Below the pieces are notes generated by a model. That model ran no database searches, was not told the DNA's origin, and saw nothing but the letters and a program-made list of their open reading frames with translations. DNA of 64,000 nt. It comes from an uncultured Pseudomonadota bacterium (GTDB lineage Bacteria > Pseudomonadota > Alphaproteobacteria > Rs-D84). This document shows, in pieces, positions 11,183-63,433 of this stretch. The stretch lies in the NCBI GenBank assembly GCA_902795435.1, contig CADBLE010000005.1, positions 2,758-66,757 of the forward strand, written 5' to 3'. Numbering within the stretch: position 1 is the stretch's first letter; each line of letters begins with the position of its first letter. The translations under genes were made by a program, and so were the position numbers.

Positions 11183-11245
11183 TTTATTTCCTTCTTTTTT
11201 TACAATGCGATTTTGACCATTTTGGCATTGCCATATTTTTATTGT

Positions 11246-22400: not shown

Positions 22401-24250
22401 GTCTTTTCATTTGGCTCTGCAGTAATCGCAATACCATTGTTGTCACGTAATTGTGCGTATGTATATTGACTTGGTTCAAGTCCTGGTAAATCAATGGTAG
22501 AATTGTTATCATTTATATCTTTATAATTGATAGCATAAACTTTTTCTTGCCATTTTGCGTTACATATCGCATCAGATTCTATTGTATAAACACCAGAAAT
22601 AAATGTATTTACCACACTTGATACATCAGTATCAGATACAGCATTACAATCCCATCCTGTCTGGGTTTGACCGACCATATTACAGAATGGGGCAACCATT
22701 GTAAATGTTGAATCATAAACAACACCAGAAGTATTAGTTATTCCATTTTCACCGCAAGAATATGTGATTACATATCTGTTGGCTTCCCATTTTGCATAAA
22801 AAACTTTATTACCATAACTTCCTTGTTCAATTGTGTGTGTTTGATGCACATCAGAACAATATAAATTATTTTCGCACCAACCAATAAATGTATATCCACG
22901 TTTTGTTGGATTATTCAATGTAAATGTAGGTGTTTCTACATTATAAGATGTTGGATTTGTCGCGGAACCACCGTCCAGGTTATATGTTATTGTGTAACCG
23001 ACTGGCGCCCAAACCGCATATAAATCTTTATTACCAGTTGAACCTTGGGTAATTGTATATGTAAGTGTAGGGTTTGAACAATTTGCACTGTTTTCACACC
23101 AACCAGCAAATTCATAATTTGCTTTTGTTGGGTTTACCAATGTAAATGTAGGTGTTTCTACATTATAAGATGTTTGATTTGTCGCAGAACCACCATCTAA
23201 ATGATATATGATTGTATAATCTGTTGCTCTCCAAACTGCATATAAATCTCTGTCACCAGTTGAACCTTGGGTAATTGTATATGTAAGAGTAGGGTTTGAA
23301 CAATTTGCACTGTTTTCACACCAACCAGCAAATTCAAAATTTGATTTTGTTGGATTATTCAATGTAAATGTAGGTGTTTCTACATTATAAGATGTTTGGT
23401 TTGTCGCAGAACCACCATCTAAATGATATGTGATTGAATATGATTGTTCTGTCCAGAATGCTGTAAATTCCAAATTCCCAACAGAACCATTTTGCACAGT
23501 ATATGTTTGTACACGATTTGTGCAATTTGCATCATTCACACACCAACCATCAAAATCATATCCAATTTTAGTTGGATTATTTATTGTAAATGTTGCGGTT
23601 TCAACATTGTAAGATGTTGGATTTACCGCATTACCACCATTTAATTCATAAGAAATTGTATAAGGAATAATATTCCATCCCGCATACAAATCCTTATCCC
23701 CGATGGAACCAGAATCTATTCTTGTGACCAAAAATCCAGAATTCTGGGTTTGTGAGGCATTATCATTACTATACCAACCGACAAAATCGTAACCATTTCT
23801 GGTCGCTGGCAACAATTCAATATCAGGAGATTCAACAGTATAAGAGGAAGGATTAGAACTGTTGTTTGTCCCGTTATATAAATTGTAGTAGTTGATATCG
23901 TAGGAATGCACCACACAGTGTACATTTGCGGTATTTACCTCTGTCATGTTTTCATAACCGGTTTTACATTCAGCGGTATATGTGCAAGTGCCGGTTGTTT
24001 CATCAACCGTCAGATTACAAGAGGCCGTATTTACTGCCAAATCTGTACATTCTTGACACCATCTTGCAGAGAAAACAACAGTACTGTTTTCATCAGCATC
24101 CAAAGCGTCGTATGTACACATCAAAGATTCATTTGGAGCAACAAAGAAAGAGTCCGCAAAAACAGGATTCATGACAAAAGGCACCACCAACGCAAACAGC
24201 ATTGCTTTTATATGATATAAAAACACCGCGGAAATCCGCCTTTTTATCAA
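16466..24250 (-). CDS. giant mosaic surface protein 2 (2594 aa): about two dozen Listeria-Bacteroides-type repeats, Cys-rich modules, one G..CWC module, conserved C-terminal domain
   Basis: Uninterrupted 7.8 kb ORF. TTG start at 24250, preceded by AGGAAGG. Signal peptide IKAMLFALVVPFVMNPVFA. Repeats of about 70-80 aa have the pattern Y.I.Y.L.GG......Y......L..P...GY.F.GW.......LYA.W. Module map in nt: Cys-rich 21060-21330, 18150-18405, 17708-17920 and 16694-16996; CWC 17228-17707; C-terminal domain 16469-16693. Confidence 0.9.
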   Translation of the reverse strand: MIKRRISAVFLYHIKAMLFALVVPFVMNPVFADSFFVAPNESLMCTYDALDADENSTVVFSARWCQECTDLAVNTASCNLTVDETTGTCTYTAECKTGYENMTEVNTANVHCVVHSYDINYYNLYNGTNNSSNPSSYTVESPDIELLPATRNGYDFVGWYSNDNASQTQNSGFLVTRIDSGSIGDKDLYAGWNIIPYTISYELNGGNAVNPTSYNVETATFTINNPTKIGYDFDGWCVNDANCTNRVQTYTVQNGSVGNLEFTAFWTEQSYSITYHLDGGSATNQTSYNVETPTFTLNNPTKSNFEFAGWCENSANCSNPTLTYTITQGSTGDRDLYAVWRATDYTIIYHLDGGSATNQTSYNVETPTFTLVNPTKANYEFAGWCENSANCSNPTLTYTITQGSTGNKDLYAVWAPVGYTITYNLDGGSATNPTSYNVETPTFTLNNPTKRGYTFIGWCENNLYCSDVHQTHTIEQGSYGNKVFYAKWEANRYVITYSCGENGITNTSGVVYDSTFTMVAPFCNMVGQTQTGWDCNAVSDTDVSSVVNTFISGVYTIESDAICNAKWQEKVYAINYKDINDNNSTIDLPGLEPSQYTYAQLRDNNGIAITAEPNEKTGYSFIGWCTDRSRTTCYEQPYIEYIPNVEPAATTTYYANWELTTYEIEYDLNGGTNDERNPSTYNMKTETIVLYNPSKTGYRFLGWFDNPEFEGDQITKIAKGSTGNKQLYAKWYVEPYTITYNLNNGSFTADTYVPRTYNAEIESDIVLPEPIRTGFEFAGWYNNSNLTGEEYTVITKGSTGNLTFWANWGNKEYTIRYLCDSNNIVTDTVSYAGAYTVRQNVCGNNTGYEFDSWQCHSRADNTEFNLTSTNYWANDFDVDCEPVWNANKYTVVFYSNTGTGSKPNVICEYGTNCDVTNNNEITKLGYDFVGWSLDAYDEENVFVPNEDNRILVKNLLTEPGVVKLYAIWKLGSYHCDDGYYLPANSTTCNKCKSGFYCQEGTWNFNPDENQGDNSCAVLLGVFSAGSNEPRSRENDCFAYCPTKPGYITNQSYTPEETISVCRYPATIEYVDIENIEECPDSSKAYTLPTDTSVTLCNVPQSRPGYTFKGFVDNKGTEYIYTGSNIVVNTNGLVPNNNVVTMTGVWETNTRTITYNCNNSADKHVTKDVSYGENEALLDSSECPNPGYTFQGWRCAGNVSNTPQVLVDYIVVPDEDVVCDAVWNVHNYNVRFNANTGTGEKATISCVYNENCDITNHDEIVKNGYSFVGWSTDANNNSVMYYPSANNDIIVKNLTDEDNATVDLYAVWNLQDYNIRYELGGARLPKANPSRYNITTPTFTLNNPVLQGYTFKGWCEGSANCAEPVVEYVFNPVQNTGNKVFYAVFDTVTYHITYKYFTENGTEGVLDTLYPREYTVQDNIVYPTDVTYPYDENTTYQYAFNGWSTSADLSNVVYGFAPGMTGDITLYARWNIATPQGSVLYNCSKKRQITRTNYVGFAVVPATLEECGISETSYRTFEGWNCDGTVYSATEGVVVAENQIVCNPQWNYEEYSITYKYITEDGTESVIPDSLLPNTYTAEDTVVYPTDVAYPYNDNTIHQYAFNGWSTSADLSNVVYGFAPGMTGDITLYARWNIATPQGNVVYDCGNRRQITRTNYVGFTVSPATATECRIDTETLIGWICDEQEYALDENVTVKDGTITCNVKLKEPEPEVLETYHITYKDVAEDGTEYEITGLTPNTYTKQDDVIYPSNITYNHHGDTRHQYAFDGWSTSADLSNVVYGFARGMTGDVTLYARWNIATPQGSVVYDCGNNHQITRTNYVGFTVLPPTATECRITLDTLIGWTCNGVEHATDEYMPVTEDTTTCVANIEMEEYNLNYELNGGTWLDGSDVRTTYTRLDSFALPTSVVKPNYDFLVWSLAPDYMNAITNIKTGTTHDTTVYAQWMPKTVRCEAGYYLPAGTLVCAQCEENKYCSGGNYEYSETTDSGIENCPASYPWSDAGSVSENDCYNNCSSRDYYVVSGRIYRNRNTCAYTPIVYHINYVLNGGEFESDTNVIYEYNVTTPFISSLVEPVQDGKIFVGWFDENNTEITGIDTSLATDITLYARWIEEPCHEDYYKTSGGVCVACPEHGYSDGGYVSACSCADGYYWNSATHECLYDYESECLSRGEDYRWDANTQQCVYEGCSVGYYKTTSTTSAFNVDISKKGNSYISRSNDGQHCYGSASDSCEGNTLNNGEWETYFDYGVIKGIASCNNTPDSETADTSYMGVETSGQYCWCQINYFTPTGGNIESRISKWGYRYNRDDDASCKNHCASNCASYLRDKTSFRQKMYDFQTGIICMPIDYTITYELYGGYAENPTSYNVETATFTLNNPEKTNYIFMGWCETENCSNPTLSYTIEQGSIGDKYLYAVWELDESTQCNENYYYDENISDCVKCPVGTLSDAGSVGQNSCVEEQFECDAGEYLYVDENVAECRTCPIGYYCPEGVWTVETADESKTQCPHGTTTEYDGASAISECHVVCPSGKYLRIGENESDKLCLYEEQQTHPALAIQVNGRTYYANMGQRNLTINAETTKKMRVEYMGRIYNVYDASME
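18640..20110 (-). repeat. three direct in-frame copies of a roughly 490-bp (about 163-aa) unit inside giant gene 2
   Basis: The motif aaatccaacataatttgttctggttatttga recurs at about 18783, 19276 and 19762. Each protein unit is Y[HS]ITYK....DGTE ... QYAF[ND]GWSTSADLSNVVYGFA.GMTGD[IV]TLYARWNIATPQG.V.Y.C......ITRTNYVGF. Confidence 0.85.
22995..23440 (-). repeat. two near-identical 222-bp (74-aa) adjacent Listeria-Bacteroides-type repeat units
   Basis: aaccttgggtaattgtatatgtaag occurs at 23041 and 23263 (period 222 bp). The protein units Y.I.YHLDGGSATNQTSYNVETPTFTL.NPTK.N.EFAGWCENSANCSNPTLTYTITQGSTG..DLYAVW are almost identical. Confidence 0.85.
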
Positions 24251-24775: not shown

Positions 24776-27700
24776 TTATTCGGATGTTACATCCCAACCT
24801 GCAAATACATAACCCGGTCTGGTTGGAACAGTTGGTACAAAACTTGTATCATACATACAAGAATCATTTATTATATCTGTTCCGTCATTATAGTTATATT
24901 TCAACGGCAAACCATTTGCATTCCAAATTGCATTTACAAATATTGTTTCAGGAACATTTGTTAAATTGAATACGCTGATTCCAGATTGGGTTTGTGGATA
25001 TTCAACACCACTTGTATTACGTGACCAACCCATAAAATCATACCCAGTGCGTTCAATTTCATTATTAGAAATATCGCAATTTGTATCATAATAACATGTC
25101 ACAGGTGCCTTTTCACCGTTACCACCATTTGCATTAAATACAATTGTGTATTGAATTGGGGTAAATATTGCATACAATGTTTTGTTTCCACCGACAGATG
25201 TATCAAAACTATATTCAATTTCAGGGTTTGCACAATTTTCAGTTTCACACCAACCAATAAATTCATATCCGTTTTTAGTTGGGTTATTCAATGTAAATGT
25301 TGGTGTTTCTACATTATACGATGTTGGATTTGTACCAGATACAATACCATCATCTAAGATATATGTAATTGTATAATCAACCGGTGTCCATTGTGCATAC
25401 AATGTTACATTTTCTACCCCAGACCAATCGAACAGAACGCTAAGATCGTATTCATCATTTTCACCTTTTACAATCTCATTACCAGAACCATCTGATTCCA
25501 GATTCCATGAATTAAATTCATAATTATTCAATACAGGTGTTTGATTTGACACACAATTTTGACCGTCCACACAAATAACATCATTTGGCATACCAACAAC
25601 ATCTTTCTGGATATTTTTATCAAAATGTACATTTATTGTCATAACCCATTGAGCATATAAATCTATATTACCAATTGTATCCGCAGGTATATCCAATGTG
25701 TTTATTGTTTCTTCACAATCATCGGCACCAACACACCAACCGATAAATTGATAACCATTTTTAATTGGTGCATTTGGTGTTATTGTTTGGTTTTCACTGG
25801 CAGAATATGTGTATGTATTTGGATATACACCACCCAATTCATTTTCCCAATCATAATAATTGATATTATAAACATTTGGGGCCCATTGTGCATACGCATT
25901 GATATCACCAATTGTTCCACCAACAATTACCAATGTCTTTTGTGAATCACCACAATTATCAGAATTCAAACACCAACCATTAAATGTATAACCACGTTTT
26001 TCTGGCTCAATCGGTGTTATTGTTTGACTGTCATCAGAATATATATATGTTGCCGGTGTAATTTCAGACAATTCATTCGCACCATCATAATATTTAATAT
26101 TAAACACATTTAATTTCCATTGTGCATATAATGTCTTGTTACCAGTTGAACCTTGTTCAATTGTGTATGTAAGAACAGGGTTATCACAATCAGTATCGTT
26201 TTCGCACCAACCAACAAATTCATGGTTTGCTTTTGTTGGGTTAAACAATGTAAATGTTGGTGTTTCAATATTATAAGATGTTGGATTTGTGCCAGATACA
26301 ACACCACCATCAAGTTCATAAGAAATTGTATATGCATATTTACATGTTGATATATCATCACCATTTTCACCATAATATGCGTGTCCACCAGATTCTGGAA
26401 TATAAGTTCCACCCAAAGAATCATTCACAGGACAGTCTCTGAAACACATATTAATTGAAGAATTTGAGACAGCCCCCTCTATTGATGTGTATCCAGATGG
26501 ACAGAATGCGCACCATGGTTTTCCTGCATCGTTGAACTGTTCACGTGTTGAATTATACATTCCGTCCGGACAATATTGTTTTAAATTTGTATATTGAAAC
26601 ATATATGACACCTGATTTGGTGATGTATCATCGGTAATATTTTCCAAAAATGATTCAGGAATATATTCTGTTGTAGTCGTTCCATCCGAAAATCCTTCCA
26701 AACCACTACAGCCATTGAACATTCTTAAGAACATCCATGTTGCAGGATCACCCGATATACCTGCAAACAGATTACCTGGAACAGTTCCCGTAAGATTTCT
26801 ACAATTTTCAAACGTTAAATTAAACATATACGGTGCCGGATTACCAGATATACCCGAGAACAGATTGCCAGGTATTGTTCCAGTAATATTAGTACAGTCT
26901 GTAAACGTGGCTGAAAACATATGCGGTGCTGGATTACCAGATATACCAGAGAACAGATTGCTAGGTATTGTTCCGGTAAGTCCACTACAACCATTGAACG
27001 TGCCTTTAAACATACCATTCACAGGTGCACCATGAACACCATTAAACAATGTTGGCGGTATTGCATATTTTTTACCAGGATTGTTTGGGTCATCTATATC
27101 CGTATCAAGCATATTTGTTACGCCCGAAAATGTATAAATAAATCTTGGTTGTTTTGACAATGAATCACCATTACCAATTGTTCCAAATATTGCACCCAAT
27201 GAACCAGATATACCCGCAATCTTTTTAGGTGTGCTAACACCACTGTTACTCATAGCAAAATCAATCGCTGAATAACTGCTGTCACTAGCTGGATTTGAAT
27301 TATATCCTGTTGCGCTTCCACTGAATCTTATTTCATGTTTATTTGCTGCATTTGTATACTTACAACCGTATGTAGCATCTGTAGTATTACCGGTACGATC
27401 AATTGTATTACCAGCACTACGTACATGATCACCCCATCTATCGCTGTCTATCAACACACCATCATCACCGCAATCAACATAGAACACACCAGATGCAGAT
27501 ATACGGAATCTGTATGTATCATTTTCACCCATTGGTGTTGTTGTTAAAGTAAATTTAACAGGTTCCCATTTTGCCCAGAATTCTTTATCACCTGTTGCTT
27601 CTGTACCAATTGTTTGTGTGTAAGAACAATTTTGCAATTGTGCGTCAGTGCACCATCCGACAAATATATAATCTTCACGTGTTGGCTTGCCATTAATTGT

Positions 27701-30700
27701 TGCACCAACACCGAATGTATAAGAGGTTGGGGCGTCAACATAATTTGTCGCACCATCCATATTGTTATATGTAATTGAATACCCAGCATTTTCCCATTTT
27801 GCATACAATACTTTATCGCCAGTTGTTGAACCTTGTTCAATTGTGTATGTAAGAACAGGGTTATCACAATCTGCATTGTTTTCGCACCACCCATTAAATT
27901 CATAGTTTGCCTTGGTTGGATTTTCCAATGTAAATGTTGGTGTTTCAATATTATACGATGTCGGGTTTGTGCCAGATACAACACCACCATATAATTCGTA
28001 TGTAATATCATAATTGATTGGTGTCCATTTTGCATATAATGTTATTTCATCGCCGTCAGTTAAATTTAATACATTATTAAAATACACAACTTTTTGATTA
28101 CCAGCTTGTGTTGTATGTATGAAATCTGTACCTGTGCCGTCTGCAGCACTATTCCAAGAAACAAAACTATACCTGTCTCTTGTTGGCCAATTTGAGCTAT
28201 TATACAGTATACTGCAACCTTGCCTATCTGTACAAATTGTATCAGCTGGAATATTTTGTACTTCACTGTTACCGGCGTTAGCATCAAAATGTATTGTTAC
28301 CTGTCGCAGCCATCTTGCATAAACAGTTACTGTGCCACTTGTGCCAGCATCTATTGTTAATGTCTTTGTACAATTTGCAGTTGCTTCAACATTATCACAC
28401 CATCCAACAAATACATAATGTTCTTTTGTTGGCTCAACCGGAGTGATTTCTTGATTATCGGTTGGGTTATATGTATATGTGTTTGGTGTTATGTTATTCA
28501 ATTCCACACCATCACTGTAATATTTAATATCATATGTATTTTTCATCCATTTTGCATATAATGTTTTATTACCTGTTAAATCAGTTATAGTAGTTATTTG
28601 TTCACCACTAAAATCAGATGTTTCATACCAACCGTCAAATACATAACCCGCAGGTGCATTATTTGGTTGATAATCGCTGATATGATATGCATTTGTGGTG
28701 ACATTAACACCGTCACTGGTTCCGTCAAAATCGTGTTGCTCGGTCTTTAATACGGTTGAACCATCCATAAATGTAACCGTTGCATAACATTGCGCAACCT
28801 GCCATGATGCTGGTTCAGAATCAGGGTAGGCATCTGGACATTGTTTATACAATTCGTCTTGATTTGCATAGAAAATACTATTGTTCATATCTACAATATT
28901 TGTAAATATGTTTGGAAAACTGTGATTCCCCATACCCGAAGCATACGCAGAAGCAGTAACACCTGTAAATTCATCTACATCTCCCGTTGATTTTGATTTA
29001 TCATAACTGTTTGTATAATATCCACGTTCTGCCGGGACACATGGACTACGATGTGAATCATTATATTGAATATCGCTAAAATCACCATTATATAAAGACA
29101 ATTCATATTCTGGGTTTCCTATATAATAACCCCTTTTACAACTTGCTATACCAACTGTTGCAGGAAAGCACAAATCATATAAACCCGTTATCGTATTGTA
29201 TTTACAAACACTTTCTAGATTATAAACAGTAGAATTTATACTATTATTTGCATCATAATCTGCAGAGATTTCTGTGTTATTAAACAAACTACCGGATAAA
29301 TCAACATTATCTGGTGAATTAGCATACATAAATCTTGCGTTACAATTTTCCAAACTATCCGCATATTCATCAGATTTAACACGCAATGCACCAAAACTTG
29401 AATTATCAACCGCTGGACATATTACGGTTTCTCTGACCCATTTTGCATATAATGTTTTATTACCAGTTAAATCGGTTGCAGTTGTAATTTTATTACCGCT
29501 GAAATCAGATGTTTCATACCAACCGTCAAACACATAACCTGCAGGTGCTTGTAGAGTTGGTTGATAATTGCTGATATGATATGCATTTGTGGTAACATTA
29601 ACACCGTCGCTGGTTCCACTGAAATCGTGTTGTTCTTCTTTTAATATAGTACCACCGTCCTTAAATGTTACCGTTGCATAACATTGTGCAACCTGCCATG
29701 ATGCTGGTTCAGAATCAGGGTAGGCGTCTGGACATTGTTTATATGCATCTGAAAGTACCCCTATATCCATTGTTCCAGGATTCACGACCACACCACGCGA
29801 AATACTACCCATAACCCCCATATTATTAGCCATTATTAGTTCTTGTGAGTCTAGATTGTCTTTTGCCATAATTAAATCATATGTTGCGGTATAATATCCA
29901 GGTTCTGCCGGCACACACGCAAATGAACTAAGTGGTGTTGTTGCAAGTATAGAACGAAAAGCTTCAGCTTCGCTCTGCGAATTATATTCCATTGGCAAAA
30001 CATGTGCATCAAGTTGTGTTTGTGTTAAATAATACCCAGATTTACAATATTCGACATATAAATCGTAACATCTGTCATATTGTGCAGTCGTTTGATTATA
30101 TTTACACAATAAATATAATCCAACATCATTTTTATTTATATCTAAATTTGTATTATATCCAGAAATTTGCGACACACTAACATTACTATACATAACAGAT
30201 GGATTTGACCCGAAAAGCAGAGGCACCATACAATCTTCAATACTGTCACTTTTTAGATAATCCCCACCAAGTGCTTTATTTATTATTATTGATTGCGCAT
30301 AATACGCACCGATATTTGTATTATCGAATATTGGACATTTTACGTTCCCTTGTGGTGTTGTTTCATTATAATCATAATCACGAGAATCTGGACAATAATA
30401 ACCATCATTACATTCTGCACATTCTCTGGAACCCGCTGGTAAATAATAACCCGCATCACAATGTATTCTTGTTGATTCTTCACAAGTTTGTGAAACGGTT
30501 GAATACAAAGATTCACGAAACTCTTGTGGGAAAAACGCAAAACCATATATACCACAAAAAGACTGACAATTTGTGTTACAACTCGAATCACTTCCTGCAT
30601 ATACCCATTGGGAAAGGGCGGTTTCACCGTTTAATTTTTCTATACGGCACCAACAATGATTACCGCTATCTGTAATGTTCGGATTACCAGTTTGATATAT

Positions 30701-33700
30701 TGTTCCGCCAGTTTCAGAACAACCAGCAGTACCGTTTATAACACCCAATTCGTTTTTAACTTCCCATGAACCAGGTTTTAAGGTTCCAAATATACTACTG
30801 TCGCTACAATCAGATGAATTTGTTTGTGTCAATAAATTCTCGTAATAACAGCTATCAACCTGTGGGTTTTTAACTTTAACATATTCCAAACTTGGATTAG
30901 AAGTATCAAAATCACGAGAGGTTAATTCATACCCACTTTGGCAAGACAATGATGAAATATCACATGCGTTTTTGTTATTCAATACACACGTAGGTGAACC
31001 ATAATACATTTTACATGTAGCGCTTTGTGGGGCATATGGTGTTTGCGCGTTTGTTATATGATAATACTCTTCACAATCTACAGAAGAATTTCTGTAACAC
31101 ATATAAATATTATCAGCGTTTGTTCCATCACGGAAACCTTCTGGACACAAAGAACATTCATTACCGTTTTTATATTCGCCCGCACCACAAGAATCTAAAC
31201 GCCATTTTGCATATAATGTTATTGTTGCGGTTGGTGTATATGGACTGCTAACCACATTGGTAAGATTGGAATCAGAATACCAACCATCAAATGTATAGTT
31301 TGCCTTGGTTGGTTCTGGCAAAGTTATTGCAGGCGAACCGTATGTGTAATCATAAGGTTCTATCGCATCACCACCATTTGTATTATATGTAATTCTATAA
31401 ACATCTGGGGAACAAACCTGATTGTTTAATGAACCGAACACCGCAGCACGGAACGCGAGGGCGTTTGAGTAGTCCGTGATCCGCATGTAGTCCTCACAGC
31501 TGCCCGCGCAGTGGACCGCACAATACGACGCGTTTCCATCGTCGCGGTTAAACACCCAAGGGGAAGACAAGCTCTGCAATGTGTCACCATTTGGTATATA
31601 GCCATCCAATTGGCAATAGCAATATTGTCCCGTACCTGTTTCATCCGTTAAATTACTTACAAAATGGTCAGGTTCGAATGTGTATCCATTTTGATCATAC
31701 CATGGATTCGCTACATTACGTGTTGAACATCTGCCATGTCCCTTGATTATTCCTTTTGTACCATAATCTACAGCAAATGCCATTGGGTCATTTGATATGA
31801 TTGTATTGGACATTCCGTATGTATCATAGTCGGTCCCAGTGCTATCGTTTGATGTATAGCCGTTAGCATCCGTTGTACCGATTGTTGACATAAGGTCTGG
31901 GGTTATATGATAATGTGTTTCACAACCCAAGGCAGAGCAGGTGTCAGGCATATCATAATAATCATTGCCACTTACAGATACAGAATGATCTATATTAGCA
32001 GTTGTACAAGCACGATAACATTCTTTTATATTTTGTGCATTGGTTCCATCACGGAAACCAGCCGGACACAAGAAACAAGCACCTCCATTTTCATATTCAC
32101 CCGCACCGCAAGAATCCGAACGCCATTTTGCATATAATGTTATTGAGCCCGTTGGGGTATATGGACTGCTAACCACATTGGTAAGATCGGAATCAGAATA
32201 CCAACCATCAAATATATTGTTTGCCTTGGTTGGTTCTGGCAAAGTTATTGCAGGTGAACCGTATGTGTAATCATAAGGTTCTATCGTATTACCACCATTT
32301 GTATTATATGTAATTCTATAAACATCTGGGGAACAAACAGAATCAAACAAAGCAGTTCGTAAACTCAGCGCCAGTTGACCACCATCACGCATTCCGTATG
32401 CACAATTAACAGAACAATTGTTTGCACATTGTCCTGCATTATCATAAGACGATAACAATAATGAACCCGAAGATATATTTTTAGTAACACCTGATGATGT
32501 ATAGTTATACAATTGACAATAACAGTTTGGACCAGAATTATCTGGCAAACTTGTGTTTATAACAGTATGATTTGTTCCTGTTTGGGTACTGCAAACACTG
32601 CGTCCTCTGACATACCCTTTGTCAGCCCCATAATATACGGCGAACGCATATTGAACACCATATATACCAGCAACAGCCGATGACAAACCACCGTAATTGC
32701 CAATTTGCCCACCATCAGATCCATTTGCAACATAATCTGCTCCCGCTTCACTAGTCCCCATTATTTCTGTCAAACTTTGGTCAGAATGATAATTTATCGG
32801 ACAAGATAATTGTGTCCATTGGGCTTGAACCCCAGTTGCAACACTGGATATTATTCCACCGATATATGTTGCCACACAACCATTAGACACAGTTGTATTT
32901 GCACCTTTTATTGTTCCATTTGCTAATTTCCAACCAGTAAATGTATATCCAGAACGAGTTGGGACAGATGGCAAAGTTAAATTTCCACCGTATATGCAAG
33001 AACCATTTGCAATCGTATTTCCACCATTTTCATCCCAATTTAATGTGATAGTGGCTGGTGTCCATTGTGCTACAATATATGTAGAAGTGCCACTTGATAC
33101 ACCTGTGTAAGTACTTGTACAACCACCAGATACTGTTTCACCGGCATTATGAATTGAATTGTCAGCCAATTTCCAACCAGTAAATGTATATCCAGAACGG
33201 GTTGGGGCAGATGGCAAAGTTAAATTTCCATCGTATATGCATAAACCATCCGCTATTGCAACGCCACCGTTTTCATCCCAATTTAATGTTATTTCTTCTG
33301 GAACCGGATTGAATGTCATACTCTTTCTAACCATACCTTGTTGATTGGCTAATTTTATCAATTGGTATTGTCCAGAATCTGGGGCAAATTGTGGTGCAAG
33401 CCCACCAAAACTCCATTTTTGACCATTCAACACTTTGTTCATGAAATATTCCACAGAATCACGTGAATAATCAGATAATTTATATCCCGCTCCGGTTGAA
33501 AGTTCCTTATCTGGATTGTTTTGCATACCAAAACATTCCATAAGTGTTTCTCCACTACAATTAGCAGAAAAATATGAACCAGAAGAAGGCACCTTATACG
33601 ACATCATAAACACCGCCAATGGACTGATATAAGCATATCCATCTGTGCTGCCTTTAGGGACTTGTATGTTATTCAAATATTTTGCAACATTTTCGTTTTT

Positions 33701-36700
33701 ACAAAAATCTGCGCCATATTCTTTTTCATCACAAACAAAAGCATACTTACCATTTGGTTCTATATTTAATATAAGTGGTGCGATATTACTTAAATGTTCT
33801 AAATTGTATTTCTTATCATTTATTATTAATTGTCCTGTCAATGGAATATAATCAGAAACCACATCGCCCGCAACGCACCCAATCCACACACCACCAGCAT
33901 CAAATCCAGCAGGATTTTGTTCTTTATCAACATAACCATTAAATGCAAAACCGTCACAATATGGTAATTCTGGTAAAACTGGTAAATCTAAACCTTCACT
34001 AATTTTACCGATAAATGTTACATATTCTGAAATATTATCTTTGTTTCCAATAAATGACGAACCAGCAGATAACAACGAATGATTGTTTTCCCATAATGCA
34101 TCTTTCGCTAAATCTGCTTTGTACTCTTTATCAATAAAAGTACCAATTCCAACAAAAGAATTCTGCGATGTTGCCCAATATCTTATTTCTGTATTATTCT
34201 TTTTGTATACATCATATGGATTAAGATATTCATCAACATATGTTAAATAAGAGTTTTTATTGTAACACCATTGGTCATCTTTAGATATCCCAGTATAACT
34301 GTTCATACAAACTTTTTCATCTGTATTACAACCAACATTTACAATATTCATTGGACAACGATATTGATTATCTTTTGATACACACTCTTCACCATTTTGT
34401 ATATATCCTGTATCACAATTATCTATTTTTATACTACAATGATCTCCTGTGCTTGATGTATTCATATATTCTACCCATGATGTATCTCCTATATATGAAC
34501 ATGTTGAATGTGGTGGACAATTCAAAGCAGGACAACTTTTTGTTACAGAACATGTACCATTGCTATAAATAGGATATTCGTCTGGACATTTTACACAACT
34601 GTTCGTTGTTTCATCAAAATATTCTGTTCCATCACAAATTATTTCTTCCCATTGTGCTGTAATAGATGTAGAAGTGCCACTTGATACACCTGTGTAAGTA
34701 CTTGTGCAACCACCAGATACTGTTTCGCCGGCATTATGAATTGAATTGTCAGCTAATTTCCAACCAGCAAATGTATATCCAGAACGGGTTGGGGCAGATG
34801 GTAAAGTTAAATTTTCACCGTATACGCATGAACCATTTGCAATTGTATTTCCACCATTTTCATCCCAATTTAATGTGATAGTGGCTGGTGTCCATTGTGC
34901 TTGGATATTTGTTGAAGTGCCACTTGATACACCTGTGTAAGTACTTGTACAACCACCAGATACTGTTTCACCGGCATTATGAATTGAATTGTCAACCAAT
35001 TTCCAACCGCTAAATGTATATCCAGAACGAGTTGGGGCAGATGGCAAAGTTAAATTACCATTTAATGTACAAGAACCGTTTGCAATTGCATTTCCACCAT
35101 TTTCATTCCAATCTAATGTGATAGTGGTTGATGTCCATTGTGCTGTAATAGATGTAGAAGTGCCACTTGATACACCTGTGTAAGTACTTGTACAACCGCC
35201 AGATACTGTTTCACCAGCATTATGAATTGAATTGTCAGCCAATTTCCAACCAGCAAATGTATATCCAGAACGGGTTGGGGCAGATGGCAAAGTTAAATCA
35301 CCATTTAATGTGCAAGAACCATCTGAAATTGCATTTCCACCATTTTCATTCCAATTTAATATGATATTTACAACAGTTGGTGTTGGACATATATTCATAC
35401 TCTCGTTAATGGCAGGATTGCTTCCATCACGCCAAGTTTGATAATAAAACATTGTTGCACATCCCCGAGCACAGTCGTTTTTACAATCAGAATAATTACT
35501 AATTTGCGAAGAATCTATATAAAACCAAGATGAATCCACTGGTGTTTCTGTGCCAGTAGAACCAGATTTCGTTTTTGTTACACGACACCAACAATTATTA
35601 CCAGTTTTAAGGTTTCTTTCTGTAACAAGTGTTGAATCCACCCCAGATTCAGTTGTTTTTCCCGTATTTATACATGTTGTTTCACCGTATAATACATTAT
35701 AATCCAAATCCATTACCATCCAAGTACTAGCATCTGCTGGAATTAAATTTGAACAATCATTCAAATAAGAATTCACACCACTAAATGAGCCATTAAACGC
35801 AGATTTACCAGCAAAACACCCAGAACCAGCAACAGAACCCAATACACTATCTTCATAATTTGTACATGTTTGTTCTTCCCATTGTGCTTGAATACTTGTT
35901 GACATTCCACTTGACACACCTGTGTAAGTACTTGTACAACCACCAGATACTGTTTCACCGGCACTTTTTATTGTTCCGTTTGCCAATTTCCAACCATTAA
36001 ATGTATATCCAGAACGGGTTGGGGCAGACGGCAAAGTTAAATTTCCACCGTATGTGCAAGAACCGTTTGCAACATCCCCACCACCATTTTCATCCCAATT
36101 TATTGTTATGGTTGCTGGTGTCCATTGTGCTGTAATAGATGTAGAAGTGCCACTTGACACCCCGGTATATGTTGCCACACAACCATTAGACACCGTTGTA
36201 TTTGCACCTTTTATTGTTCCGTTTGCTAATTTCCAACCAGTAAATGTATATCCAGAACGGGTTGGGGCAGATGGTAAAGTTAAATTACCATTTAATGTGC
36301 AAGAACCATTTGAAATTGTATTTCCACCATTTTCATCCCAATTTAATGTTATAACGACGGTTGGTTCCGGTTCTTTACCACCGCCTTCTGGATAATCATC
36401 AAATCTTTCTTTGTTTCCAGTATCTTCAACACCCGCACAATTTGAATTGCATTGGAATTTTGTCAGTGATGTATGATGCGGAATATTATCATAAGTTATC
36501 TCTGTTGATTTACCAGTATTATTATACAATATGTTTGCATGTAATCTGGTTGAACGTCCAAACGTTGAAGAATTTAACATTTTATGCAATTCTTTTTCTT
36601 GTGTCAAATTATATATAATCGCATCTTTGTCTGTTTGGCTAAATTTAACATCTTTGCCAACCTGATTAGTGAAATATTCCTCATACGCCATAAACATAGC

Positions 36701-37837
36701 GTTCAACATATCTTGCAACCCCAGGGCAGCAGGATATATTAAAGGCATTTCTTTACCATACATATAAAAAAGAGATTTATCATCCTGGGCTATTCCAGAT
36801 GTAGCAGAATAATCAGCCAAAACAATTTCGCTGACAACACCGTTTTTATCTTCAATAACAGCGGTCCATCCTTTTCCGAAAACTTCTCTTAAAATGAAAC
36901 GGTCCATACCAAAACCAGCGGCAATTCCAGCGTTTATAAACGGTGTTTGGTCTGTATATATTATTATATCATAAGATGCACCAGTATCAACACCATTACA
37001 TGATGTAACATATTTATCATTTCCAGTAAGTTTTGTTCCCATTGGACACAACGCTATTGGTGGAAGTTCTGTATCTGCAATAACACCCGCTTTTACCTGA
37101 TCTTCCACTGTTTCATTCAAAACAAATATATTTCCTTTTAAATCAACAGTACCATTTGTATTGTATTTATAATCTAAAATAGGTGTATCATAAATGTTGT
37201 ATTTAACACTGTTACCTCCTGATGTGGTCATGGAATTTGGATGTATCATATACCAAAAAGACGAACCAACCGAATGGTCTGATTTACAATCATCAACAAA
37301 ATTTAATTTCATCAAATCTTTGTATGAATCAACAGGACAAACATCTGTACTGCTTGATTTGATAGGAACAAAATGATCTGATGAATACAATAAATCTTTA
37401 ATGGTTGAACCAGATTTCTGTAAATAACTTCGTGCTGCAGTATATAAAGACCAGTCATGATATTCTGGGTATTTTGTCAAGAAATTAAAATACCCCGAGA
37501 TAACCATATATTCTATCAAAGCATCATTCTGTATATCGTTTAAAGCGATACAAGTATTACCGCCTTGCTGTCTCATTATATATCCCGCTTCACACTTCAC
37601 AACACAATTTTCAGAATTATTAGAAAGATAAAAATTGCAAGAATCACCCGAAAAAGCATTTAAAGACGAAAAAGACAACACCAACGCAAAAAGCATTGCT
37701 TTGATAACAGCAAAAATTTGGCGGTTTTTAGCCACTTTTAAGATTTTCCGTCCTTTCTTTATGTTTATCTTAGAAAAAAACAAAGGGGTGTGTAAAGGGA
37801 AAAATTTCGTGATTATATATAAATATATAAAATTCAT
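24776..37837 (-). CDS. giant mosaic surface protein 3 (4353 aa as maximal ORF; likely GTG start at 37735)
   Basis: Uninterrupted 13 kb ORF. Starting at GTG 37735 gives the signal peptide (M)AKNRQIFAVIKAMLFALVLSFSSLNAFS, homologous to the N-terminus of giant protein 2. Module map in nt: unique N-terminal region about 36359-37650; 243-bp repeat blocks 35873-36358, 34643-35374 and 32812-33297; CWC modules 35375-35872, 32330-32811, 31410-31930 and 30480-31010; unique region 33298-34642; a roughly 900-bp duplication at 28545-30340; BspA-like cassette 26570-27560. Many Listeria-Bacteroides-type repeats run to the very C-terminus. The C-terminal domain of proteins 1 and 2 is absent. Confidence 0.9.
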   Translation of the reverse strand: MNFIYLYIITKFFPLHTPLFFSKINIKKGRKILKVAKNRQIFAVIKAMLFALVLSFSSLNAFSGDSCNFYLSNNSENCVVKCEAGYIMRQQGGNTCIALNDIQNDALIEYMVISGYFNFLTKYPEYHDWSLYTAARSYLQKSGSTIKDLLYSSDHFVPIKSSSTDVCPVDSYKDLMKLNFVDDCKSDHSVGSSFWYMIHPNSMTTSGGNSVKYNIYDTPILDYKYNTNGTVDLKGNIFVLNETVEDQVKAGVIADTELPPIALCPMGTKLTGNDKYVTSCNGVDTGASYDIIIYTDQTPFINAGIAAGFGMDRFILREVFGKGWTAVIEDKNGVVSEIVLADYSATSGIAQDDKSLFYMYGKEMPLIYPAALGLQDMLNAMFMAYEEYFTNQVGKDVKFSQTDKDAIIYNLTQEKELHKMLNSSTFGRSTRLHANILYNNTGKSTEITYDNIPHHTSLTKFQCNSNCAGVEDTGNKERFDDYPEGGGKEPEPTVVITLNWDENGGNTISNGSCTLNGNLTLPSAPTRSGYTFTGWKLANGTIKGANTTVSNGCVATYTGVSSGTSTSITAQWTPATITINWDENGGGDVANGSCTYGGNLTLPSAPTRSGYTFNGWKLANGTIKSAGETVSGGCTSTYTGVSSGMSTSIQAQWEEQTCTNYEDSVLGSVAGSGCFAGKSAFNGSFSGVNSYLNDCSNLIPADASTWMVMDLDYNVLYGETTCINTGKTTESGVDSTLVTERNLKTGNNCWCRVTKTKSGSTGTETPVDSSWFYIDSSQISNYSDCKNDCARGCATMFYYQTWRDGSNPAINESMNICPTPTVVNIILNWNENGGNAISDGSCTLNGDLTLPSAPTRSGYTFAGWKLADNSIHNAGETVSGGCTSTYTGVSSGTSTSITAQWTSTTITLDWNENGGNAIANGSCTLNGNLTLPSAPTRSGYTFSGWKLVDNSIHNAGETVSGGCTSTYTGVSSGTSTNIQAQWTPATITLNWDENGGNTIANGSCVYGENLTLPSAPTRSGYTFAGWKLADNSIHNAGETVSGGCTSTYTGVSSGTSTSITAQWEEIICDGTEYFDETTNSCVKCPDEYPIYSNGTCSVTKSCPALNCPPHSTCSYIGDTSWVEYMNTSSTGDHCSIKIDNCDTGYIQNGEECVSKDNQYRCPMNIVNVGCNTDEKVCMNSYTGISKDDQWCYNKNSYLTYVDEYLNPYDVYKKNNTEIRYWATSQNSFVGIGTFIDKEYKADLAKDALWENNHSLLSAGSSFIGNKDNISEYVTFIGKISEGLDLPVLPELPYCDGFAFNGYVDKEQNPAGFDAGGVWIGCVAGDVVSDYIPLTGQLIINDKKYNLEHLSNIAPLILNIEPNGKYAFVCDEKEYGADFCKNENVAKYLNNIQVPKGSTDGYAYISPLAVFMMSYKVPSSGSYFSANCSGETLMECFGMQNNPDKELSTGAGYKLSDYSRDSVEYFMNKVLNGQKWSFGGLAPQFAPDSGQYQLIKLANQQGMVRKSMTFNPVPEEITLNWDENGGVAIADGLCIYDGNLTLPSAPTRSGYTFTGWKLADNSIHNAGETVSGGCTSTYTGVSSGTSTYIVAQWTPATITLNWDENGGNTIANGSCIYGGNLTLPSVPTRSGYTFTGWKLANGTIKGANTTVSNGCVATYIGGIISSVATGVQAQWTQLSCPINYHSDQSLTEIMGTSEAGADYVANGSDGGQIGNYGGLSSAVAGIYGVQYAFAVYYGADKGYVRGRSVCSTQTGTNHTVINTSLPDNSGPNCYCQLYNYTSSGVTKNISSGSLLLSSYDNAGQCANNCSVNCAYGMRDGGQLALSLRTALFDSVCSPDVYRITYNTNGGNTIEPYDYTYGSPAITLPEPTKANNIFDGWYSDSDLTNVVSSPYTPTGSITLYAKWRSDSCGAGEYENGGACFLCPAGFRDGTNAQNIKECYRACTTANIDHSVSVSGNDYYDMPDTCSALGCETHYHITPDLMSTIGTTDANGYTSNDSTGTDYDTYGMSNTIISNDPMAFAVDYGTKGIIKGHGRCSTRNVANPWYDQNGYTFEPDHFVSNLTDETGTGQYCYCQLDGYIPNGDTLQSLSSPWVFNRDDGNASYCAVHCAGSCEDYMRITDYSNALAFRAAVFGSLNNQVCSPDVYRITYNTNGGDAIEPYDYTYGSPAITLPEPTKANYTFDGWYSDSNLTNVVSSPYTPTATITLYAKWRLDSCGAGEYKNGNECSLCPEGFRDGTNADNIYMCYRNSSVDCEEYYHITNAQTPYAPQSATCKMYYGSPTCVLNNKNACDISSLSCQSGYELTSRDFDTSNPSLEYVKVKNPQVDSCYYENLLTQTNSSDCSDSSIFGTLKPGSWEVKNELGVINGTAGCSETGGTIYQTGNPNITDSGNHCWCRIEKLNGETALSQWVYAGSDSSCNTNCQSFCGIYGFAFFPQEFRESLYSTVSQTCEESTRIHCDAGYYLPAGSRECAECNDGYYCPDSRDYDYNETTPQGNVKCPIFDNTNIGAYYAQSIIINKALGGDYLKSDSIEDCMVPLLFGSNPSVMYSNVSVSQISGYNTNLDINKNDVGLYLLCKYNQTTAQYDRCYDLYVEYCKSGYYLTQTQLDAHVLPMEYNSQSEAEAFRSILATTPLSSFACVPAEPGYYTATYDLIMAKDNLDSQELIMANNMGVMGSISRGVVVNPGTMDIGVLSDAYKQCPDAYPDSEPASWQVAQCYATVTFKDGGTILKEEQHDFSGTSDGVNVTTNAYHISNYQPTLQAPAGYVFDGWYETSDFSGNKITTATDLTGNKTLYAKWVRETVICPAVDNSSFGALRVKSDEYADSLENCNARFMYANSPDNVDLSGSLFNNTEISADYDANNSINSTVYNLESVCKYNTITGLYDLCFPATVGIASCKRGYYIGNPEYELSLYNGDFSDIQYNDSHRSPCVPAERGYYTNSYDKSKSTGDVDEFTGVTASAYASGMGNHSFPNIFTNIVDMNNSIFYANQDELYKQCPDAYPDSEPASWQVAQCYATVTFMDGSTVLKTEQHDFDGTSDGVNVTTNAYHISDYQPNNAPAGYVFDGWYETSDFSGEQITTITDLTGNKTLYAKWMKNTYDIKYYSDGVELNNITPNTYTYNPTDNQEITPVEPTKEHYVFVGWCDNVEATANCTKTLTIDAGTSGTVTVYARWLRQVTIHFDANAGNSEVQNIPADTICTDRQGCSILYNSSNWPTRDRYSFVSWNSAADGTGTDFIHTTQAGNQKVVYFNNVLNLTDGDEITLYAKWTPINYDITYELYGGVVSGTNPTSYNIETPTFTLENPTKANYEFNGWCENNADCDNPVLTYTIEQGSTTGDKVLYAKWENAGYSITYNNMDGATNYVDAPTSYTFGVGATINGKPTREDYIFVGWCTDAQLQNCSYTQTIGTEATGDKEFWAKWEPVKFTLTTTPMGENDTYRFRISASGVFYVDCGDDGVLIDSDRWGDHVRSAGNTIDRTGNTTDATYGCKYTNAANKHEIRFSGSATGYNSNPASDSSYSAIDFAMSNSGVSTPKKIAGISGSLGAIFGTIGNGDSLSKQPRFIYTFSGVTNMLDTDIDDPNNPGKKYAIPPTLFNGVHGAPVNGMFKGTFNGCSGLTGTIPSNLFSGISGNPAPHMFSATFTDCTNITGTIPGNLFSGISGNPAPYMFNLTFENCRNLTGTVPGNLFAGISGDPATWMFLRMFNGCSGLEGFSDGTTTTEYIPESFLENITDDTSPNQVSYMFQYTNLKQYCPDGMYNSTREQFNDAGKPWCAFCPSGYTSIEGAVSNSSINMCFRDCPVNDSLGGTYIPESGGHAYYGENGDDISTCKYAYTISYELDGGVVSGTNPTSYNIETPTFTLFNPTKANHEFVGWCENDTDCDNPVLTYTIEQGSTGNKTLYAQWKLNVFNIKYYDGANELSEITPATYIYSDDSQTITPIEPEKRGYTFNGWCLNSDNCGDSQKTLVIVGGTIGDINAYAQWAPNVYNINYYDWENELGGVYPNTYTYSASENQTITPNAPIKNGYQFIGWCVGADDCEETINTLDIPADTIGNIDLYAQWVMTINVHFDKNIQKDVVGMPNDVICVDGQNCVSNQTPVLNNYEFNSWNLESDGSGNEIVKGENDEYDLSVLFDWSGVENVTLYAQWTPVDYTITYILDDGIVSGTNPTSYNVETPTFTLNNPTKNGYEFIGWCETENCANPEIEYSFDTSVGGNKTLYAIFTPIQYTIVFNANGGNGEKAPVTCYYDTNCDISNNEIERTGYDFMGWSRNTSGVEYPQTQSGISVFNLTNVPETIFVNAIWNANGLPLKYNYNDGTDIINDSCMYDTSFVPTVPTRPGYVFAGWDVTSE
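28545..30340 (-). repeat. two direct copies of a roughly 900-bp unit inside giant gene 3
   Basis: About 320 bp is near-identical at 28541-28860 and 29431-29760. It encodes YKQCPDAYPDSEPASWQVAQCYATVTF.DG.T.LK.EQHDF.GTSDGVNVTTNAYHIS.YQP..APAGYVFDGWYETSDFSG..ITT.TDLTGNKTLYAKW. The upstream parts of each unit are more diverged. Confidence 0.8.
32812..33297 (-). repeat. 243-bp (81-aa) repeat block A, 2 units
   Basis: Units are ITLNWDENGG...LTLPSAPTRSGYTF.GWKLA......TV S.GC..TYTG...AQW. The DNA motif aatttccaaccagtaaatgtatatccagaacg.gttgg occurs at about 32925 and 33167. Confidence 0.9.
34643..35374 (-). repeat. 243-bp (81-aa) repeat block B, 3 units
   Basis: The motif recurs at 34748, 34991 and 35234, an exact 243-bp period. 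The units are highly similar to each other and to blocks A and C. Confidence 0.9.
35873..36358 (-). repeat. 243-bp (81-aa) repeat block C, 2 units
   Basis: The same unit as blocks A and B, with the motif at about 35977 and 36226. Confidence 0.9.
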
Positions 37838-37870: not shown

Positions 37871-38179
37871 ATCAGGTGCGAAAGGGCATAGCGGTATCAC
37901 ATTTGTCGTGATACTGAGGAAAGTCCGGACTGCACGGGACAGCATAGTGGCCAACAGCCACGCAGAGTAATCTGACGATTAGAGCAACAGAGACGAGCGT
38001 ATTAAATTACGGTGAAACGGGCAATCTCTATGCGCAGCAACCTCAAGTAGGATTTCTAGGTGTGTCCCCACCGTTACGGAAATCGGGTAGAGGGCTTTGA
38101 CATCTTATGGCAACATAATTTGCAGATTAATTATGCCCGCAATTAAATTGCACAGAATCCGGCTTATTGAACACCTGAT
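37871..38179 (+). ncRNA. rnpB: RNase P RNA (bacterial type A, compact)
   Basis: Universal P4 elements GAGGAAAGTCCGGAC (about 37914-37928) and ACAGAATCCGGCTTA (about 38152-38166). The terminal P1 helix pairs atcaggtg (37871-37878) with cacctgat (38172-38179). The region is locally GC-rich and non-coding and is followed by a terminator. Confidence 0.9.
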
Positions 38180-38185
38180 AAAAAT

Positions 38186-62399: not shown

Positions 62400-63433
62400 A
62401 AAAATTATTATGTTTAATCTTTTCTATTTTGTTTGTTATGAACGCTAATGCGGCGGATAGTGCATTGGAAAAATGCTTGAAAAAAATCACCGCAGATGAA
62501 GTAAATTGGAATAACGGTATATCCCAAATTTTTGGTAATACAGATTTAGACGAATCAAATGTTGAAGTAAATAAATCTAAAATTTACGATTTGTTAACTA
62601 ACAGATTTGAAAGTTTGTGTGGCACAGAACTTATGGCCATCGCAAAAACATCCGCAGAACGTGGTCAAATAAATTTCAAACATAATAACAAAGATTATGC
62701 TTTTAATTTCAGTGTTGATAAACTATTCGATAATTTCGGTATTCAAACGGGTATATTGGTTATAAACAAAAGAAATTTACACACAAACGAAATATTAGAG
62801 AAAGATTCTCTGCCAAAAAGCACTTCCAAAACCAACCCGTACAGATTTTTCTCTGACGAATGTTCTGACCACGCAATATGGGATAATCTTGATGATGACG
62901 CTGCTGTAAATCAGGCAGGCCAGGCAATATTTACTGAATATGGCGGTTCAGCAAATGAATTTTTCATTGATTTTGCTGTTGGAGATGATAATCGTGCATT
63001 CCCTGGTTTGATAATTGAAGATGTGACTTATTCAACAGAAGAAAGGGTTGTTTCATATACTAATCTTAAAACCGCTATTGAACGCACCAGACAATTTGCA
63101 AATAAATTAAAGGGTGGCAGTTGTTCCAACCAGCAATTATCTGTATATTTGGTTGCGTTAAATGTGCAAAAACAAACACAAAACACCTCATCACAAAGTG
63201 CAGGGTGGCGTGATGCAACAGCGACTTCGACAGGTATAGCGGCTGGCGTAGGGGCAGGTACAGCCATAGCATCAAGCCTTGGCCTAATTGCCGCAGGAAG
63301 TGCCACTATCCCAGTAGCAGGTTGGATTGTTGCGGGTGTTGCGGGTGTTGCTGCTATTGGTTTTGCATTATGGCCAACTAATATCGCAAATATTGAACGT
63401 GTTATGATTTTAGACGGTCCTTACGATTTATAA
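62396..63433 (+). CDS. secreted hypothetical protein with Gly/Ala-rich C-terminal membrane segments (345 aa)
   Basis: Signal peptide LLCLIFSILFVMNANA. The C-terminus is STGIAAGVGAGTAIASSLGLIAAGSATIPVAGWIVAGVAGVAAIGFALW (glycine-zipper-like). Confidence 0.7.
   Translation: MKKLLCLIFSILFVMNANAADSALEKCLKKITADEVNWNNGISQIFGNTDLDESNVEVNKSKIYDLLTNRFESLCGTELMAIAKTSAERGQINFKHNNKDYAFNFSVDKLFDNFGIQTGILVINKRNLHTNEILEKDSLPKSTSKTNPYRFFSDECSDHAIWDNLDDDAAVNQAGQAIFTEYGGSANEFFIDFAVGDDNRAFPGLIIEDVTYSTEERVVSYTNLKTAIERTRQFANKLKGGSCSNQQLSVYLVALNVQKQTQNTSSQSAGWRDATATSTGIAAGVGAGTAIASSLGLIAAGSATIPVAGWIVAGVAGVAAIGFALWPTNIANIERVMILDGPYDL

Follow-up and report, generated by a model that had tools for sequence, protein, structure and literature searches.

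The prototype diversity-generating retroelement (DGR), that of Bordetella phage BPP-1, comprises a variable repeat (VR) in the target gene mtd, a template repeat (TR), the accessory gene avd and the reverse transcriptase (RT) gene brt. Its VR of about 140 nucleotides (nt) encodes about 47 residues, adenines are the sites at which VR and TR differ, the TR has AAC codons, and G+C-rich constant segments lie around the core. Such segments flank the mutagenized region on both sides in DGR repeats (Wu et al. 2018, PMC5758913). VRs are C-terminal with few exceptions, which has been attributed to the need for noncoding cis elements (PMC5758913, PMC8144416), and in large surveys the annotated VR regions are systematically of the C-type lectin (CLec) kind and C-terminal (Roux et al. 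2021, PMC8144416). Here we describe a G+C-rich island inside a giant gene of an uncultured alphaproteobacterium, located in a stretch of 64,000 nt (assembly GCA_902795435.1, contig CADBLE010000005.1, positions 2,758 to 66,757; hereafter the window). Homology, codon pattern, composition and the working cassettes of relatives, all of which were observed, indicate that this island is very probably the VR of a DGR.

The repeat features listed above for BPP-1 recur in this lineage, and the RT of the relatives is a full-length homologue of Brt. There are also differences. The lineage element is chromosomal and not phage borne, no resemblance to Avd could be detected for its accessory open reading frame (ORF) of 108 residues, the fold predicted for the variable domain is not that of a CLec, and the candidate VR of the window lies 2,218 residues before the C terminus of its target with no G+C-rich inverted repeat after it. 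Cellular DGRs, namely, the Treponema denticola TvpA group and Legionella LdtA (Wu et al. 2018, PMC5758913), resemble the present case in that their targets are surface exposed and can be far from TR and RT. Those targets are lipoproteins of the CLec or formylglycine-generating-enzyme type with a C-terminal VR, whereas the target in the window is a giant protein of Flg_new repeats with an internal VR on a scaffold predicted to be helical and Cys rich. An internal VR is also found in the Ig1 and Ig2 classes (Wu et al. 2018, PMC5758913), where, as here, the 3' recognition segment must encode protein too. The Ig1 and Ig2 targets are phage-tail-type proteins of ordinary size, unlike the target in the window, and these classes have since been re-read as Ig domains adjoining an uncharacterised VR domain (Roux et al. 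2021, PMC8144416). No target of comparable size or repeat architecture was found in the DGR literature compared.

A G+C-rich coding island within a giant gene

The gene that contains the island spans positions 24776 to 37837 on the minus strand and encodes a protein of 4,353 residues with a signal-peptide-like N terminus and about 20 Listeria-Bacteroides repeats (Flg_new, Pfam PF09479; E 7.6e-172, 20 stretches). Positions 31443 to 31562 form the richest 120-nt stretch of the 64 kilobases (kb), with a G+C content of 0.608, about 4.7 standard deviations above the mean of all such stretches of the window (mean, 0.358; standard deviation, 0.053). A sequence-only reading that had pointed out the island counted 73 G+C in positions 31441 to 31560, and a recount gave exactly this number. 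The third-position G+C content (GC3), computed in 40-codon windows across 33 ORFs, has a mean of 0.244 and a standard deviation of 0.081; it reaches 0.775 in the island and is at most 0.55 elsewhere in the window, so that the unusual codon usage reported in that reading is borne out by the computed profile. With 0.217 as the rate of G/C-ending codons in the giant gene, a binomial model gives a probability of 9e-14 for 31 or more such codons among 40. The island is therefore real and far beyond chance, and its excess of G+C lies mainly at synonymous sites.

The reading frame runs unbroken through the island, and the encoded peptide, which had been quoted correctly, corresponds to residues ~2087 to 2136 of the 4,353-residue ORF. 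The edges are as sharp as had been claimed, within about 10 nt. Adenine is depleted, at 0.16 within the candidate VR (G+C, 0.596) versus 0.33 to 0.34 in its flanks. A stop-free alternative frame at positions 31429 to 31647 of the minus strand is a by-product of the A-poor composition of the repeat, in agreement with the view first taken of it. It corresponds to a spurious ORF in a related locus, L147, where gene callers report a 127-residue ORF (L147:1711-2094, minus strand) antisense to the TR; this is a separate by-product.

Homologues and complete cassettes in relatives

A search with the 217 residues around the island retrieved 39 homologues of the surrounding domain from gut and rumen metagenomes. 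Most are about 290 residues long and end a few residues past the equivalent of the island (...LAFRAAVFNSVQ-stop). Between an invariant S-x-P-W-V-F and an invariant L-A-F-R-A-A-V-F, these proteins are hypervariable around fixed Cys and Ala residues, and this pattern suggested the VR of a DGR.

Complete cassettes are present in relatives of the source bacterium, in the order target with VR, TR, 108-residue ORF and RT. In the 226-kb contig L001, the 3' end of the target gene (protein P0003) recurs downstream as a 150-nt direct repeat, after which come the 108-residue ORF and an RT of the RVT_1 family. The VR (10743 to 10892) and the TR (11072 to 11221) differ at 15 positions of the 150-nt repeat, 13 of which are adenines in the TR. 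Locus L147 has the same layout, and all 19 mismatches of its core fall at adenines. The order TR, 108-residue ORF and RT is also found in L016, from the water-buffalo metagenome-assembled genome (MAG) RGIG7797, and in L018, from a "Candidatus Enterousia" MAG. In the alignments of L001 and L147, the TR has a 12-nt periodicity, with TGC GCG AAC AAC occurring three times.

The RT of L001 aligns over its full length with the protein of PDB chain 8ub7_A (E 1.1e-45), which is 100% identical to brt of BPP-1; RTs of group II introns and retrons score about 1e-17. The alignment places IGNLTSQ of the L001 RT opposite IGSLTSQ of Brt, which we take to be the RT motif typical of DGRs. The family is large, with more than 1,092 homologues at E ≤ 1e-60. 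On every contig that is long enough, the 108-residue ORF is found a short distance upstream of the RT, and it is conserved in L001, L016, L018, L147, L148, L150, L151 and L152; searches of Pfam, NCBIfam, PHROGs and PADLOC gave no match for it.

The composition of these elements differs from that of the DNA around them. VRs of the lineage have a G+C content of 0.60 to 0.68 and an adenine content of 0.09 to 0.16, and TRs have 0.56 to 0.59 and 0.20 to 0.24, respectively, whereas the RT genes have a G+C content of 0.28 to 0.40 and host DNA 0.33 to 0.42. The candidate VR of the window matches the composition of lineage VRs that are demonstrably served by a template.

Two features of the cassette surroundings were seen in addition. 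In L147 (4029 to 5818), L148, L149 and L153, the cassette of TR, 108-residue ORF and RT adjoins secG-rnc-lepB, a conserved chromosomal site; these genes are not in the window. Just upstream of short DGR targets in L001 (9480 to 9902) and L004 (9546 to 9965) lies a gene of 140 residues that is a paralogue of the N-terminal part of the target (47 to 54% identity) without the variable domain.

Anatomy of the candidate variable repeat

Alignment to the repeats of L001 and L147 delimits the candidate VR to positions ~31431 to 31572 of the minus strand. The TR of L001 matches this segment at 74% identity over 142 nt (E 7e-20), the VR of L147 matches the island at 78% (E 5e-30), and the TR of L147 matches it at 77% (E 3e-26). 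The edges of the island coincide with the ends of the alignments, which is where TR/VR identity starts and stops in the cassettes of the lineage. A comparison of composition shows that the similarity to the TR/VR pairs, with the same G+C content, does not continue through the flanking domain in the relatives.

Three parts can be distinguished within the candidate VR, all on the minus strand. At the 5' end, positions 31550 to 31572 form a constant segment, GCTTGTCTTCCCCTTGGGTGTTT, which encodes L-S-S-P-W-V-F and at which TR/VR identity begins in L001 and L147. The putatively mutagenized core (positions 31460 to 31549, codons 2097 to 2126) consists of variable codons, mostly of the form NNC, interleaved with constant codons without A, such as TGY for Cys and GCG for Ala. 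The 3' end, at positions 31431 to 31459, is a G+C-rich constant segment, CTCGCGTTCCGTGCTGCGGTGTTCGGTTC, that resembles the end of a VR where initiation of mutagenic homing (IMH) takes place. Its 29 nt are identical in the TR of L016 and the VR of L011, and positions 31431 to 31460 match the VR end of L016 at 30 of 30 nt. Identity between the VR of L012 and the TR of L018 stops inside this 3' segment, at ...GTGTTCGG, and the window keeps ...GTGTTCGG.

The codon pattern of the core is that expected from mutagenesis of adenines. Opposite the 12 AAC codons of the L001 TR, a heterologous template, the window reads AAC, CGC, GAT, GTC, CAC, GGC, AGC, GAC, TAC, ATC, AAC and GCC; 11 of the 12 codons retain the third-position C, and positions 1 and 2 vary. 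The constant codons of the VR (GCG, TGY, CTC, TTC, CGN and GTG) are without A. The same division is seen across the 39 homologues, where the columns with 10 to 15 different residues are those of AAC or AAT codons in the TR, and the columns from A-free codons are invariant or nearly so, with Cys, Trp, Phe and Arg invariant. A comparison of same-codon identity within the VR and upstream of it, made with four relatives, gave mixed values.

The VR ends at residue 2136 of 4,353, and it is thus not at the C terminus of its target. Most of the short homologues end right after the VR, and by the standard of described DGRs such an internal site is unusual. It is not confined to the giant gene, and the lineage offers a graded series of targets, from those that end after the VR, through those in which one Flg_new repeat follows it (L147, P0009, P0010, P0014 and P0022), to the giant gene of the window.

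Predicted fold of the variable domain and its paralogous copies

The island lies at the end of a Cys-rich domain that spans residues 1980 to 2138 (positions 31424 to 31900, minus strand), as delimited with a hidden Markov model (HMM) built from the 39 homologues (E 9e-68). AlphaFold2, run with the alignment of the 39 sequences, predicts a beta-sheet followed by two helices (predicted local distance difference test score, 89.8; predicted template modeling score, 0.86). The VR encodes both predicted helices (residues 124 to 140 and 145 to 156 of the model). In the three C-A-x-x units, the variable pairs fall at i, i+1, i+4, i+5, i+8 and i+9, a periodicity that suggests that the pairs lie on one helical face. 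Foldseek retrieved no fold match for the predicted domain in the PDB, including the solved DGR variable proteins (best E 1.2; template modeling score, ≤0.21), or in BFVD (best E 0.6); the PDB sequences, searched with a profile of the domain, gave no match either. By its model, the VR-bearing domain is not a recognizable CLec domain.

Paralogous copies of the domain occur in the window without the signature of a VR. The clearest, at positions 32336 to 32776 of the minus strand (HMM E 8e-27), lies in the same gene, has a GC3 of 0.23 and uses A/T-ending codons, with GCA for Ala. Weaker HMM matches are found at 35444 to 35773 and 30551 to 30817 of this gene and at 17276 to 17641 of the neighboring giant gene. 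Overall, the GC3 of the copies ranges from 0.18 to 0.29, with GCA for Ala, and it is 0.19 at 32306 to 32482, in line with the sequence-only reading, which had noted A/T-ending codons in the paralogous modules. These copies resemble former VR modules that have since decayed, or else duplicates that never served as targets. One of them still reads C-A-N-N-C-S-V-N-C, which resembles an unmutated template.

Proposed mechanism

The mechanism proposed here is the one established for DGRs in general, and the sequences of the lineage's complete cassettes bear it out. A noncoding TR beside the Brt-like RT is transcribed, and complementary DNA (cDNA) is made from the TR RNA; wherever the template has an adenine, nucleotides are misincorporated at random. 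This cDNA then replaces the VR, from the fixed G+C-rich 3' segment back to the limit of homology. In this way an AAC codon of the TR would become NNC in the VR at each diversified position, and the scaffold codons (GCG, TGC, CTC, TTC and CGN) would be kept without A because adenines would be mutagenized. The sequence of the VR would be set by the TR and not by the codon usage of the host, which would account for its sharp edges, its low content of A and its many codons that end in G or C. The seemingly foreign codon usage would then be a property of the template and not the mark of a high-GC donor.

Applied to the window, this suggests that retrohoming within this very genome produced the island and that a TR and an RT located outside the window still serve it in trans. 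The candidate VR shows no drift towards the AT-rich codon usage of the giant gene, unlike the older, AT-rich paralogous copies, and this is read as recent or ongoing retrohoming. As to whether DGR activity continues at this site, we lean slightly towards the view that it does. The variable residues are predicted to sit on two helices of a Cys-rich domain within a secreted repeat protein of 4,353 residues, and they probably serve to diversify a surface with which this giant, adhesin-like protein binds ligands.

Action in trans and the search for the cognate template

Action in trans does occur in this lineage. In the "Candidatus Enterousia" MAG, the TR and RT are on L018 and the VR is on L012, with 20 mismatches at A sites versus 5 others. 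Among non-phage DGRs, documented cases include targets that lie over 100 kb away from the RT (PMC5758913).

A number of findings nevertheless weigh against the proposed explanation. In the 64-kb window, blastn at word size 7 with the island and with the L001 TR returned only the self match of the island, and tblastn found neither the RT nor the accessory ORF. None of the three components (TR, RT and 108-residue ORF) is present in an additional ~7 kb of left flank and ~4 kb of right flank, which were obtained from rumen contigs 99 to 100% identical to the window. The cognate TR was not found in the genome, metagenome and viral collections scanned. A pattern scan of genome contigs returned relatives and no cognate TR, a first metagenome scan gave no match, and a second yielded 120 loci, of which 8 belong to the family (70 to 74% identity where the island aligned) and none has an RT; neither the scan of viral collections nor a search among proteins with the peptide predicted antisense to the TR gave a match. 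The RT homologues P0041, P0043, P0044 and P0045 belong to cassettes from other samples, all of them noncognate. Every TR in hand differs from the VR of the window at 20 to 26 non-adenine positions and by a 3-nt (one-codon) indel, so that the cognate TR must be another one and the A-to-N pattern is read against heterologous templates only. A G+C-rich inverted repeat was not found 3' of the VR, the only one there being AT rich (positions 31393 to 31433, 82% complementary). This last point counts weakly, since only 34% of DGRs have a G+C-rich inverted repeat after the VR (PMC5758913). Finally, RGIG7797 contains a VR-like island of 61% GC at the 3' end of a gene (L011:7574-7746) that shares its last ~40 nt with the only TR seen in this MAG (L016:678-805) and has 22 non-A mismatches to it elsewhere. 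This suggests either a second DGR in RGIG7797 or an orphan VR, and VR copies that are unserved or differently served may thus exist.

Two observations made on other contigs are recorded here. Contig L004 (NODE_15, 286 kb) encodes target P0016 without an RT within 10 kb, and the RT homologue P0112 is recorded on a contig of equal length (286,009 nt), which suggests a nonadjacent target on the same replicon. A recurrent segment of 121 nt was found in contigs of about 60% GC, several of them labeled as human gut metagenome (L028, L030, L031, L038, L039 and about 30 further loci). It has few positions that differ between contigs, is unrelated to the island by blastn and could be another hypervariable repeat or merely a conserved gene.

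Alternative explanations

The failure to find a template raises the question of whether the island is a fossil, that is, a VR that owes its sequence to the DGR of an ancestor or came in together with its domain, and whose matching TR and RT have since been lost. The lack of TR and RT in the 64 kb and ~11 kb of flanks, the absence of a cognate TR from the collections scanned and the mismatch between the L011 island and the only known TR of its MAG are all consistent with such an orphan, and the older domain copies in the same genes, devoid of any VR character, show that decay occurs here. However, the GC3 of 0.775 and the A content of 0.16 equal those of served VRs, against a GC3 of 0.22 for the gene itself, and with A-free scaffold codons and a 3' segment conserved at 30 of 30 nt the loss would have to be recent. 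The documented remote targets of non-phage DGRs also take force from the absence of a nearby RT. On balance, we regard an orphan VR as rather unlikely, though it is the most probable of the alternatives.

Transfer of a tract by homologous recombination or horizontally, from the DGR target of another organism or from a higher-GC homologue and with no retrohoming in this genome, would also give sharp edges and a composition at odds with that of the host gene, and the habitat is rich in related target genes (the RT search alone returned more than 1,000 homologues). This explanation is improbable, as both edges fall exactly at the limits of TR/VR identity in the lineage, which is unexpected for random endpoints, and no donor closer than 78% was found. 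Nor was a high-GC homologue found: the family-specific matches all come from loci of 33 to 48% overall G+C, and the high-GC contigs caught by the search patterns did not match the island. A high-GC donor organism was rejected for a further reason, as the cassettes' own RT genes are AT rich (28 to 40% GC) versus 56 to 68% for TRs and VRs. The sequence-only reading had listed a conversion tract from a high-GC homologue among its explanations; a short tract overwritten from a separate donor is indeed what is now proposed, but the donor would be a noncoding TR copied by an RT, as found in AT-rich hosts among the relatives. That reading, which did not name a DGR, had also considered a chimeric assembly and selection for an embedded nucleic acid element, such as a structured RNA, a protein-binding site or a recombination site. 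A chimera, or an element selected for G+C in the form of a structured RNA, an antisense gene or a protein-binding site, is now highly improbable. The locally high G+C and the stop-free frame at 31429 to 31647 could be taken to favor an embedded element. Yet RNA fold z-scores of −0.21 and +0.45 against dinucleotide shuffles and the lack of an Rfam family (best E 0.84) speak against a structured RNA, and the alternative frame is the same artifact as the ORF that gene callers place antisense to the L147 TR. What survives, and what the idea of a recombination site partly caught, is that the island has at its 3' end a conserved IMH-type segment for recognition and priming. An assembly chimera was rejected, since both junctions are crossed by the reading frame, by residues invariant in the family and by homology to the relatives; the 5' junction in particular is spanned by DNA homology to the relatives' target genes (window positions 31861 to 31431). 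The VR of a DGR remains the preferred explanation of the island.

Significance

A DGR variable repeat is in itself a known kind of element. What is new here is its position inside a giant adhesin-like gene, its remoteness from any template and its unrecognized scaffold. In an AT-rich genome, a coding island of about 140 nt that is G+C rich, A poor and NNC rich marks a DGR VR even when template and RT are distant. Such a site would escape standard DGR finders, which take the RT as their starting point.

If the element is active, DGR targeting reaches an internal module of a giant repeat adhesin, a helical, Cys-rich scaffold of non-CLec type is, as far as the model can be trusted, added to those used for display, and uncultured Alphaproteobacteria of gut and rumen are seen to possess a very large family of Brt-like RTs. 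The surface variation of these bacteria probably bears on how they attach to their host or to particles. More broadly, we put forward tentatively that gut and rumen Alphaproteobacteria have a lineage of chromosomal DGRs that works in trans on a site midway along a 4,353-residue surface protein, where it diversifies one side of a helical hairpin rich in disulfides. This scaffold would be unrelated to the CLec fold, which has so far been regarded as almost universal among DGR targets, and the accessory protein would be unrelated to Avd. Were this so, mutagenic retrohoming would tolerate a fully coding 3' context, and DGRs could be plugged into single modules of giant adhesins.

Genomic surroundings

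The source organism, a rumen alphaproteobacterium, encodes GcrA, and its relatives are "Candidatus Enterousia" and MAGs named "Alphaproteobacteria bacterium." The second-highest G+C peak of the window, at positions 63199 to 63318 (0.583), has a normal third-position G+C and encodes a Gly/Ala-rich hydrophobic C-terminal segment of a secreted-looking protein of 345 residues without a Pfam family. It was considered as a second VR and rejected, since with its ordinary GC3 the peak is an effect of amino acid composition. The target gene belongs to a tandem trio of giant Flg_new-repeat genes on the minus strand (11347 to 16458, 16466 to 24250 and 24776 to 37837). On the opposite strand, 35 nt from its annotated start, lies the gene for a bacterial class A RNase P RNA (37872 to 38182, plus strand; 186 bits).

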